In this document: positions 22,350 through 23,357 of the stretch, piece by piece | Layout: each line of letters starts with the position of its first letter | How positions within the stretch are numbered: the first letter of the stretch is position 1 | Assembly: GCA_001724025.1 (NCBI GenBank) | Contig: MEDJ01000009.1 | Coordinates: 306,762-370,761, forward strand | From: Acidobacteria bacterium SCN 69-37 | GTDB taxonomy: Bacteria; Acidobacteriota; Vicinamibacteria; Vicinamibacterales; SCN-69-37 | Reading direction: 5' to 3' | DNA length: 64,000 nucleotides | Notes under the pieces: generated by a model | What the model was told of the DNA's origin: nothing | The model's input: the letters and a program-made list of their open reading frames with translations, nothing else | The model's database searches: none | Translations under genes and position numbers: made by a program

Positions 22350-23332
22350 GCGGCACGGTCCACGACGTCGTCGAGGCCATCCGGACGCGGCAGTCATTTG
22401 TGCTGACATCGCACGCCCGCCCGGATGGCGATGCGATCGGATCGTCGGTGGCGCTCGCCCTCGCCCTCGATGCGCTCGGCAAGACGGCCACGGTACTGCT
22501 GCGCGATCCGGTGCCGGGACCGTACAGGAACTTCCCCGCCATCGATCGCATCCGGATCACGGATCGGGCCGACGTGCCGGCCGAGGCGTTGATCGTGCTC
22601 GAGTGCGGGGACCTGACGCGGCCGGGCATCGCGGGGCTCGACGCCTACCCCGTCATCAACATCGATCACCACCTCGGCAACACGATGTACGGCGCCGTCA
22701 ACTGGTTCGACGAGGGGGCTCCGGCGTGCGCGGAGATGGTCGCGACGCTGATCGATGCGCTCGGCGTGTCGTGGACGTCGGCGATCGCCGCGCAGATCTA
22801 CCTGGGGATTGCGACCGACACGGGCGGCCTGCGCTACGGATCGATCACGGCGCGGACGTACGACGTGTGTCGCCGCATCGTCGAGGCCGGGGTCGACACG
22901 CCGCAGCTCGCACGACAGATCTTCGAGAGCTACTCGATCGGCCGCGTACGGCTGACGGGCGCGCTGCTCGACGCGATGACGCTGTACCACGACAACCGTC
23001 TGGCCGTTCTGGCCTTCGACGACGCGCTGCTCGCGCGTGTGGGGGCGTCACTCGACGACACCGAGGGGCTGGTGAACGTGCCGCTCGGCGCCCGCGAGGT
23101 CGTGTCGACGATTCTGCTGAAGCACCAGGTCGACGGCACGTGGCGCGTGAGCCTGCGCTCGAAGGGCGACGTCGACGTGCGCACCGTGGCCATGCAGTGG
23201 CAGGGCGGCGGCCACCGCAACGCCTCCGGCTGCACGATGACCGGCGACCGCGAAACGGTCACGCGCCTCCTCGTCGAGGCGATGGCCGACGTGCTCGAAG
23301 ACATGGCCGCGACGGCCACCACGACGCCGTAG
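22346..23332 (+). CDS. nrnA: DHH/DHHA1 phosphoesterase NrnA (oligoribonuclease/pAp phosphatase)
   Basis: Contains H.RPDGDAIGS, NIDHH and GGGH..ASG motifs. GTG start overlaps the rbfA stop (GTGA). Confidence 0.85.
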   Translation: MSGTVHDVVEAIRTRQSFVLTSHARPDGDAIGSSVALALALDALGKTATVLLRDPVPGPYRNFPAIDRIRITDRADVPAEALIVLECGDLTRPGIAGLDAYPVINIDHHLGNTMYGAVNWFDEGAPACAEMVATLIDALGVSWTSAIAAQIYLGIATDTGGLRYGSITARTYDVCRRIVEAGVDTPQLARQIFESYSIGRVRLTGALLDAMTLYHDNRLAVLAFDDALLARVGASLDDTEGLVNVPLGAREVVSTILLKHQVDGTWRVSLRSKGDVDVRTVAMQWQGGGHRNASGCTMTGDRETVTRLLVEAMADVLEDMAATATTTP

Positions 23333-23357
23333 GGGCGACGCATGCGTCGCCCCTACG
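23328..23357. repeat. Perfect 30-nt palindrome CGTAGGGGCGACGCA|TGCGTCGCCCCTACG (family E, copy 1)
   Basis: Self-complementarity checked base by base. It contains the nrnA stop TAG (23330-23332) and the truB ATG (23342-23344). Confidence 0.95.

Follow-up and report, generated by a model that had tools for sequence, protein, structure and literature searches.

The 64,000-nucleotide (nt) stretch of Acidobacteria bacterium SCN 69-37 analysed here, referred to below as the window, contains an operon with the gene order infB, rbfA, an NrnA-like gene (nrnA), truB, rpsO and pnp. At the nrnA-truB junction, the stop codon of the first gene and the start codon of the second lie within one perfect 30-nt palindrome, composed on the plus strand of the arms CGTAGGGGCGACGCA and TGCGTCGCCCCTACG (23328-23357). 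We propose that this palindrome represents a repetitive extragenic palindromic (REP) element, of a kind associated with RayT transposases, and that its insertion reshaped both ends of the junction. The features of the locus are:

21879-22349, plus strand: rbfA, the upstream operon member (Pfam RBFA, E = 1e-31)
22346-23332, plus strand: nrnA, encoding a DHH/DHHA1 phosphoesterase (NrnA-like) of 328 residues, GTG start (Pfam DHH and DHHA1)
23328-23357, plus strand: perfect 30-nt palindrome, predicted in the mRNA as a 13-bp stem with a CAUG tetraloop
23329-23356, no strand assigned: proposed 28-nt double-foot REP GTAGGGGCGACGCATGCGTCGCCCCTAC, delimited by the identical, sharply bounded 28-mer in many genomes
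23330-23332, plus strand: TAG stop codon of nrnA, attributed to the GTAG foot of the REP
23342-23344, plus strand: truB start codon (ATG), situated in the loop of the hairpin at the centre of GCATGC
23342-24244, plus strand: truB, encoding a tRNA pseudouridine-55 synthase of 300 residues (Pfam TruB_N/TruB_C)
23360-23362, plus strand: ATC at the ancestral truB start position, as placed by N-terminal comparison with relatives

The rbfA stop codon overlaps the GTG start of nrnA by 4 nt (GTGA), and the truB ATG follows 9 nt past the nrnA TAG, in the same frame. Between this TAG and the conserved GLLLLDKP motif of TruB no other ATG, GTG or TTG could be identified, so the ATG at 23342 is the sole canonical truB start; the same start is found in public gene calls on nine metagenome contigs with an identical protein. 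As RNA, the 30-mer is predicted to fold into the 13-bp stem and CAUG loop at -26.2 kcal/mol (z = -6.7 versus shuffled sequences), and in silico this stem covers the nrnA stop codon, a Shine-Dalgarno (SD)-like run and truB codons 2-6. A first-pass annotation of this DNA had described a perfect palindrome holding the nrnA stop, the SD-like run AGGGG and the truB ATG in one frame, with the ATG in the loop of a GC-rich hairpin of about 13 bp; sequence and fold agree with this description in full. The region from -25 to +25 around the truB start folds at -27.7 kcal/mol, versus a mean of -14.2 (sd 6.9) for 41 open reading frame (ORF) starts in the window, and the window folds of the infB, rplQ, rpsK and pnp start regions range from -2.5 to -8.4 kcal/mol.

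A terminator and promoter scan found nothing at the nrnA-truB palindrome, and in a search of Rfam over 23196-23391 no family scored above its gathering threshold. The only match, to the Burkholderia small RNA BTH_s1 (26.5 bits versus a threshold of 74), lies on the minus strand over the same interval with E = 9e-4 and spans the palindrome, whose hairpin probably drives it. Two independent short-read Logan contigs, 100% identical to the window (L124 and L125, positions 1-30), begin at the G of GTAG. These ends were considered as a sign of repeat copy number, a reading that was rejected in favour of breakage of the de Bruijn graph at the self-complementary 30-mer, their probable cause.

A scan of one genome per bacterial or archaeal species, with the 18-nt core GGCGACGCATGCGTCGCC as query, recovered no fewer than 119 loci; the counts for this family given below refer to the matches listed. 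These carry at least 13 phylum-level labels. By record title, Chloroflexota account for 31 loci, Gemmatimonadota for 18, Planctomycetota and Gammaproteobacteria for 16 each and Binatia for nine, followed by Acidobacteriota (seven), Desulfuromonadales and other "delta" lineages (six), Alphaproteobacteria (five) and Actinomycetota (three), with single loci in Armatimonadota, Nitrospirota, Bacteroidota and others. The aligned flanks show a sharp consensus GTAGG-core-CCTAC and no conservation outside it. By definition, such REPs are palindromes of 20-50 nt with a conserved GT[AG]G tetranucleotide in front, and both window copies have this form. An exact GTAGG or CCTAC stands beside the core in 98 of 135 copies (31 on both sides, 67 on one), a fully complementary foot is present in 35 of 133, and four copies have compensated double-foot variants (GCAGG twice, GTAGA and GTACG once each). 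Since 27 of the 35 double-foot copies show no pairing beyond the 28-mer, the element is taken to be 28 nt long, and the outermost C-G pair of the window's 30-mer belongs to the flank. The 28-mer GTAGGGGCGACGCATGCGTCGCCCCTAC runs from a GTAG foot to a CTAC foot, with three G-C pairs closing the stem at its base and GCATGC in the middle. At least 5-7 copies were counted in several genomes, and about 60% of the copies that could be classified by a heuristic gene call are intergenic. The earlier suggestion that the palindrome is a reusable element and no coincidence, made from a second copy in the window, is therefore well founded, as that copy is joined by a family spread over many genomes.

Other forms of the element were also encountered. 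Inverted dimers of single-foot copies with spacers of about 27 nt occur in several metagenome-assembled genomes (MAGs) of Pseudomonadales and other Gammaproteobacteria (L015 1697-1769, L060 1229-1300, L063 5502-5574, L081 1102-1174, L016 and L094). They sit within a larger conserved repeat and resemble REP doublets forming hairpins (REPINs) or bacterial interspersed mosaic elements (BIMEs). A single-foot form of 23 nt was seen on 19 stretches of predicted viral contigs (IMG/VR, L206-L224), two of which have the double-foot form; no RayT homologue was found on these 19 stretches. No match to the element turned up in a megablast search of 72,556 plasmids, and the literature that could be searched contained neither the 16-nt core nor GTAGGGGCGACGCATGCGTCGCCCCTAC in its exact form.

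The ORFs of all family loci were clustered, and one recurrent family, marked by the motifs MPNHVH, WQRNYYEHIIR and YIxxNP, proved to consist of RayT-like HUH/Y1 proteins. These proteins match REP_Tyr_transpos (NCBIfam NF047646) with E = 1e-18, and Pfam Y1_Tnp marginally. They are encoded in six of the 119 8-kb blocks, where by our estimate about 0.3 would be expected by chance. In five of these six blocks a REP lies in frame within the transposase gene itself, after the HUH strand, and in the four intact ORFs it is read as [VR][GA]THASPL, i.e. VGATHASPL or RATHASPL:

locus L008, 1038-1946: RayT gene with in-frame REP
locus L047, 5767-6333: RayT gene with in-frame REP
locus L061, 3004-3654: RayT gene with in-frame REP
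locus L097, 7418-7999: RayT gene with in-frame REP

REP copies also flank the RayT gene in L048 and L033, and a variant REP follows the RayT stop codon in L097. The palindrome within the RayT gene of L047 (6059-6102) reaches 44 nt, with 21 of 22 pairs. A database search with one of the RayT-like proteins returned 6437 homologues, the named ones being labelled "REP element-mobilizing transposase RayT" or "transposase". ATHASPL is present at the same site in 50 of the best 120 of these 6437 (P0121-P0240), and many others have peptides that back-translate to palindromic, compensated variants, such as VGARHASPL and VGAQHAAPL, or RRGTIYRAPT in another frame. The REP-derived peptides in RayT homologues sometimes comprise several tandem or partial copies. 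This transposase link holds for the family, as seen in other genomes.

The TnpA_REP proteins of subclass 2.4 (RAYT group 4) have been characterized by the motifs NH[IFV]H, WQ and YIxNNP, a median length of 194 residues, a variable insertion after strand beta-3 and a patchy distribution over various phyla; their REPs are long, the base of the stem consists of three G-C pairs, and the ends carry a "double foot" of 5' GT[AG]G and 3' C[TC]AC (Quentin et al. 2018, PMC6006769). Cleavage and strand transfer of a single-stranded REP by its transposase have been reported in a biochemical assay (PMC8266576). The point-by-point match to the description by Quentin et al. identifies the window element as a double-foot REP of subclass 2.4, and we assign the palindrome with high confidence to the GTAG-tagged double-foot family.

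How this REP came to carry both a stop and a start is suggested by comparison with relatives. Among 120 TruB homologues almost all (more than 100) start with M(D/T/N)G(V/L) followed by LLIDKP, without the extension described next. The TruB protein of the window has six extra N-terminal residues, MRRPYE (codons 1-6, 23342-23359), which derive from the right arm of the REP (ATG CGT CGC CCC TAC G-). The comparison of the junction itself rests on three informative relatives. In L121, with 72% TruB identity, no REP is present, and the nrnA TAG is followed by a 29-nt spacer and the start ATG ACC GGC. In L122, with 78% TruB identity (GCA_964627115.1, CAZVHY010000017.1, 9817-9924), three REPs of a different GTAG family were identified, two copies of GTAGGGGCCGGCCTTG[CT]GCCGGCCC and one inverted copy; the nrnA frame passes through the first of these and ends at the TAG in the second, with truB starting as TTG ATC TCC GGT 12 nt past the third. 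Finally, L120, with 98% TruB and 97.5% nucleotide identity, carries the window's REP with a G-to-A change, by which the stem acquires a C-A mismatch (-19.5 kcal/mol) and Arg3 of TruB becomes His; a flanking G is altered too. As a side observation, the nrnA TAG of L121 lies in the loop of a small hairpin, GCGGTGAC-GTA-GTCACCGC (6386-6404), with CG before the TAG, so that GTAG is present at the nrnA stop even without a REP. A metagenome-contig search for close TruB relatives gave, among the matches listed, sequences that all have 62% identity or less.

Between the window and L120, truB has 16 synonymous and six non-synonymous codon differences, and two of the latter six fall in the six REP-derived codons. 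Judging from these sequences truB is under purifying selection, and must therefore be translated. Two differences within the 30 nt of the palindrome amount to a rate no lower than the 2.5% by which the DNA around it diverges, and this comparison gives no sign of strong constraint on either the stem or the peptide that it encodes. The nrnA-truB junction appears from these sequences to be a recurrent landing site for REPs in this Vicinamibacterales clade, as L122 carries three REPs of another family and L120 the same one as the window. Altogether, the alignments make it very probable that the REP supplied the nrnA stop and the truB start. The donation of a sole start from a hairpin loop, together with that of a stop by the same copy, is an unusual and incidental arrangement.

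The first-pass annotation had gone further, reading the palindrome as an obligatory translational coupling device, and had named a lack of bias of its copies towards gene junctions as the outcome that would speak against this. The gene context was called for 112 family copies in high-GC loci by a heuristic that accepts ORFs with GC content in the order third, first and second codon position (GC3 > GC1 > GC2), which recovers the known genes of the window. Thirty-two copies lie between co-directional genes, 20 between convergent and 15 between divergent ones, 28 apparently within ORFs (many of these in short ORFs or close to 5' ends that are doubtful); the other 17 are at contig edges. A TAG stop is supplied by about eight of the 112. 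In three loci (L050, L071 and L072) stop and apparent start both lie in the element, and the likelier starts of the downstream proteins lie further on; here the ATG of the REP is picked automatically by the longest-ORF rule when the frames coincide. In 11 copies the central ATG was at first called as a start, which was rejected as an artefact of the same rule, the frame being closed by the in-frame TAG 12 nt upstream. The copies are thus not confined to gene junctions, and by the annotation's own standard the notion of a general coupling device fails. Also at the nrnA-truB junction the hairpin is not conserved, with the C-A mismatch in L120, no hairpin at the truB start in L121 and different REPs in L122. 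What stands of the original proposal is the placement of a very stable predicted hairpin over the truB start, which should hinder initiation: the short distance from stop to start (9-nt spacer) and the inhibitory structure over the start (13-bp stem) are both present in silico. A purpose-built device is not borne out.

The second copy in the window lies in the following surroundings:

61556-61589, no strand assigned: second REP copy, a perfect 34-nt palindrome (CGTAGGGAGGCGACGCA followed by TGCGTCGCCTCCCTACG), fold -30.7 kcal/mol
61603-62187, minus strand: rplQ (L17), with its TAA stop codon 13 nt upstream of the second copy
60518-61525, minus strand: SLT_2 lytic transglycosylase gene, downstream of the second copy

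Both window copies have CGTAGGG and the 18-nt core in common, and the second can be described as a symmetric 2-nt insertion in both arms (GTAGGG-AG-GCGACGCATGCGTCGC-CT-CCCTAC), with its GTAG at 61557-61560. The symmetric AG/CT insertion could stem from a separate subfamily, from hairpin-templated repair or from an inverted dimer. In this variant the distance from TAG to ATG is 14 nt, out of frame, and the in-frame TAG-N9-ATG spacing is accordingly not a conserved design; its interpretation as a designed stop-restart spacing was rejected on these grounds, other variants moreover having no ATG. The SLT_2 gene has an ATG at 61525 (MRHRIAV..., with a signal peptide), 48 nt beyond the REP ATG at 61573 and in the same frame; the start is probably at 61525, leaving the REP ATG unused. 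The idea that the SLT_2 start itself (GGCATGCGTCA) is a decayed REP was rejected as unsupported, because rplQ starts with ATGCGTCA (MRH...) for unrelated reasons and no hairpin is left. No T-run is found 3' of either window copy, as an intrinsic terminator would require, and the scan predicted no terminator at either.

Some other structures in the window are mentioned for completeness. On the minus strand at 63338-63471 a near-perfect, AT-rich hairpin of about 134 nt is followed by UUUUUAUC, in a genome of 69% GC. The spacer in which it lies (63277-63484, between rpsK and rpoA) folds at -112 kcal/mol (z = -12), and no rpsD is present between these two genes. The hairpin looks like an inverted repeat of the MITE type, or like a giant terminator or attenuator. 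Strong GC-rich hairpins, their stems 11-19 bp long, were further observed in two clusters at 5421-6174 and 30881-31465, including a perfect one of 19 bp at 31294-31335. Both clusters apparently lie within coding sequence and are unrelated to the GTAG family.

From these observations we propose the following course of events. RAYT/TnpA_REP proteins of subclass 2.4 (group 4) would spread non-autonomous REPs as single-stranded DNA hairpins, and one copy would have come to occupy the nrnA-truB spacer in a lineage of the Vicinamibacterales (Acidobacteriota). Its GTAG foot would have become the nrnA TAG, its central GCATGC the new truB ATG and its right arm the residues MRRPYE, with the old start position decaying to ATC. 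In the mRNA, a hairpin of -26 kcal/mol would bury the truB start region, so that free 30S subunits should initiate poorly. A ribosome that terminates at the TAG, i.e. at positions 3-5 of the hairpin, would unwind the 5' arm, and could then either re-initiate 9 nt downstream or leave the site open; a new 30S subunit may enter the transiently open truB AUG. Given its mRNA footprint and its helicase activity, the terminating ribosome would have opened this arm along its full length. Since the hairpin buries the truB initiation region, its unfolding by ribosomes terminating on nrnA is a reasonable assumption, and the production of TruB mainly by way of an upstream ribosome, or of the site opened by it, is the most economical explanation. 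The coupling would be an incidental result of a selfish insertion, possibly tolerated or co-opted later.

A selfish double-foot REP that supplies stop and start and thereby causes incidental coupling is in our opinion the best overall explanation, and a probable one. Its mechanistic component, that truB translation depends largely on nrnA translation, is favoured by the predicted structures by a modest degree. Both RNA unfolding and scanning or re-initiation have been put forward as models of such coupling, as reviewed in PMC12548453. Several points weigh against the proposed explanation. No RayT gene was found within the 64-kb window, and only two copies of the family occur in it. The distance from stop to old start is 27 nt, compared to 29 nt in L121, which fits insertion and spacer replacement alike. 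The ATC at 23360 may serve as a weak, non-canonical start. Chemla et al. (2020, PMC7518266) found less re-initiation where a stable structure directly follows the stop codon. According to Liang et al. 2015, as cited in PMC12306157, REPs within 15 nt of a stop codon stall ribosomes and down-regulate the upstream gene.

The last two points lead to the best surviving alternative, in which the hairpin acts mainly as an insulator or attenuator that lowers expression, by stalling at the nrnA stop or by blocking re-initiation, and TruB, of which little would be needed, is made in small amounts that are tolerated. The reported effects point opposite to coupling, and by analogy the hairpin may reduce the output of NrnA, of TruB or of both, so that the net effect could be insulation. 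The REP does overlap the nrnA stop, 13 nt separate the second copy from the rplQ stop, and a stability of -26 kcal/mol would suit such a role. However, purifying selection acts on truB, whose sole start is in the hairpin, and the hairpin must therefore be opened in some way; the published observations, moreover, concern E. coli and a synthetic operon and no Acidobacteria. Such an effect, which is compatible with coupling and does not exclude it, seems possible but on the unlikely side.

More doubtful is a function at the 3' end of RNA, where the hairpins would act as a barrier to 3'-5' exonucleases, or as terminators that lack a U-tract, and would stabilize the infB-rbfA-nrnA and rpoA-rplQ messages with differential expression as the outcome. 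Stabilization of mRNA is a classical function of REPs (cited in PMC12306157 and PMC8266576), and both copies are situated immediately 3' of a stop codon, the second where the rpoA-rplQ unit ends and a terminator would be expected. A barrier role for both hairpins is possible, but no T-run follows either of them, the terminator scan was blank at both, and truB, directly downstream of the first copy, needs transcription to read through it.

Rather improbable, in our view, is the stronger suggestion that the REP has been co-opted, with TruB slaved to NrnA translation and the 28-mer acting as a frame-tolerant "stop-restart cassette". On both strands of the 28-mer one frame contains TAG-N9-ATG in frame, and the other two frames are open, one of them encoding VGATHASPL. 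If the suggestion were true, this property of the 28-mer would help the family to colonize operon junctions and ORFs in more than 10 phyla without loss of downstream expression.

Even less credible is a dedicated, selected coupling module, in which the hairpin would exist to bind truB translation to nrnA termination and be reused elsewhere. The arrangement at the junction does invite this view, with 9 nt between stop and start, a very stable hairpin that has the start in its loop and the SD-like AGGGG in its stem, the most structured initiation region among the credible starts of the window, and tight junctions elsewhere in the operon, such as the GTGA overlap of rbfA and nrnA. Yet the family at large does not behave accordingly, as its copies are found in convergent, divergent and intragenic positions and at variable distances from genes, with about eight of 112 providing a TAG stop, and L050, L071 and L072 have likelier starts further downstream. 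In the window, the second copy comes after a TAA, and the next gene probably starts elsewhere than at the ATG of this copy; the relatives either lack the hairpin or have a mismatch in its stem, the palindrome having changed at two of 30 nt against 2.5% overall.

A chance palindrome, or an operon-specific operator for a dimeric regulator, for which perfect dyad symmetry would be typical, can practically be dismissed, since about 5e-4 perfect palindromes with arms of 15 nt would be expected in a 64-kb window (our own calculation, assuming a per-position pairing probability of about 0.29 at 69% GC) and the identical 28-mer recurs in genomes of many phyla, beside unrelated genes and inside RayT genes.

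With the selfish REP insertion as the preferred explanation, the nrnA-truB junction offers a natural example of a selfish palindrome that would have rewritten both ends of a gene junction, extended a protein by six residues and provided the sole start of the housekeeping gene truB. The hairpin is predicted to lock this start in a very stable fold, and no new kind of system is needed to account for it. The junction therefore presents a test case for coupling by unfolding as opposed to insulation by a hairpin. In addition, the occurrence of a near-identical 28-mer in many phyla, along with an in-frame copy in RayT genes, suggests that REP and transposase may travel together.

Among known systems, the junction can be compared to gene pairs coupled by RNA unfolding or termination-reinitiation, such as coat-lysis of MS2 and gene VII-IX of f1 (PMC12548453; Huber et al. 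2019, PMC6728339). It shares with these the short distance from stop to start, the silencing of the downstream start by a structure that includes sequence of the upstream ORF, and a 5' arm that a ribosome at the stop codon would have unwound. In the known pairs the dependence has been shown experimentally and the structures are gene-specific, whereas here a generic mobile repeat is involved and the dependence is predicted. The position of the hairpin within 15 nt of the stop also recalls the down-regulation by REPs (Liang, Rudd & Deutscher 2015, as cited in PMC12306157), and a stable hairpin at once after the stop recalls the "ribosome termination structure" (Chemla et al. 2020, PMC7518266). 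These predict reduced translation of the upstream gene or reduced re-initiation, i.e. an effect opposite in sign to coupling.

As to the element itself, a GTAG tag, a GC-rich stem and a short loop are shared with the GTAG-tagged REPs (GTAG-1 to GTAG-24, including SMAG of Stenotrophomonas; Di Nocera et al. 2013, BMC Genomics 14:522, PMC3733652). These REPs favour positions after genes, between co-directional or convergent genes, and the TAG of their tag is often the stop codon of a flanking ORF. They also occur within ORFs and at N-termini, and truB is hit in S. maltophilia, E. litoralis and S. alaskensis (PMC3733652). Unlike in the window element, the tag of the classical GTAG REPs is unpaired and present at one end only. 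The same paper describes no donation of a sole downstream start from the hairpin loop, and suspects most 5'-terminal REPs to be non-coding. The closest known counterparts are the double-foot REPs of TnpA_REP subclass 2.4 (BMC Genomics 19:475, PMC6006769). The emphasis in that work is on Cyanobacteria and Bacteroidetes, whereas the present copies are mainly from MAGs of Chloroflexota, Gemmatimonadota, Planctomycetota, Proteobacteria, Binatia and Acidobacteriota. Common to both are the GT[AG]G foot with its C[TC]AC complement, the long perfect stem with three G-C pairs at its base, the transposases of about 170-195 residues with NH[IFV]H, WQ and YIxNNP-like motifs, and a patchy spread over many phyla.

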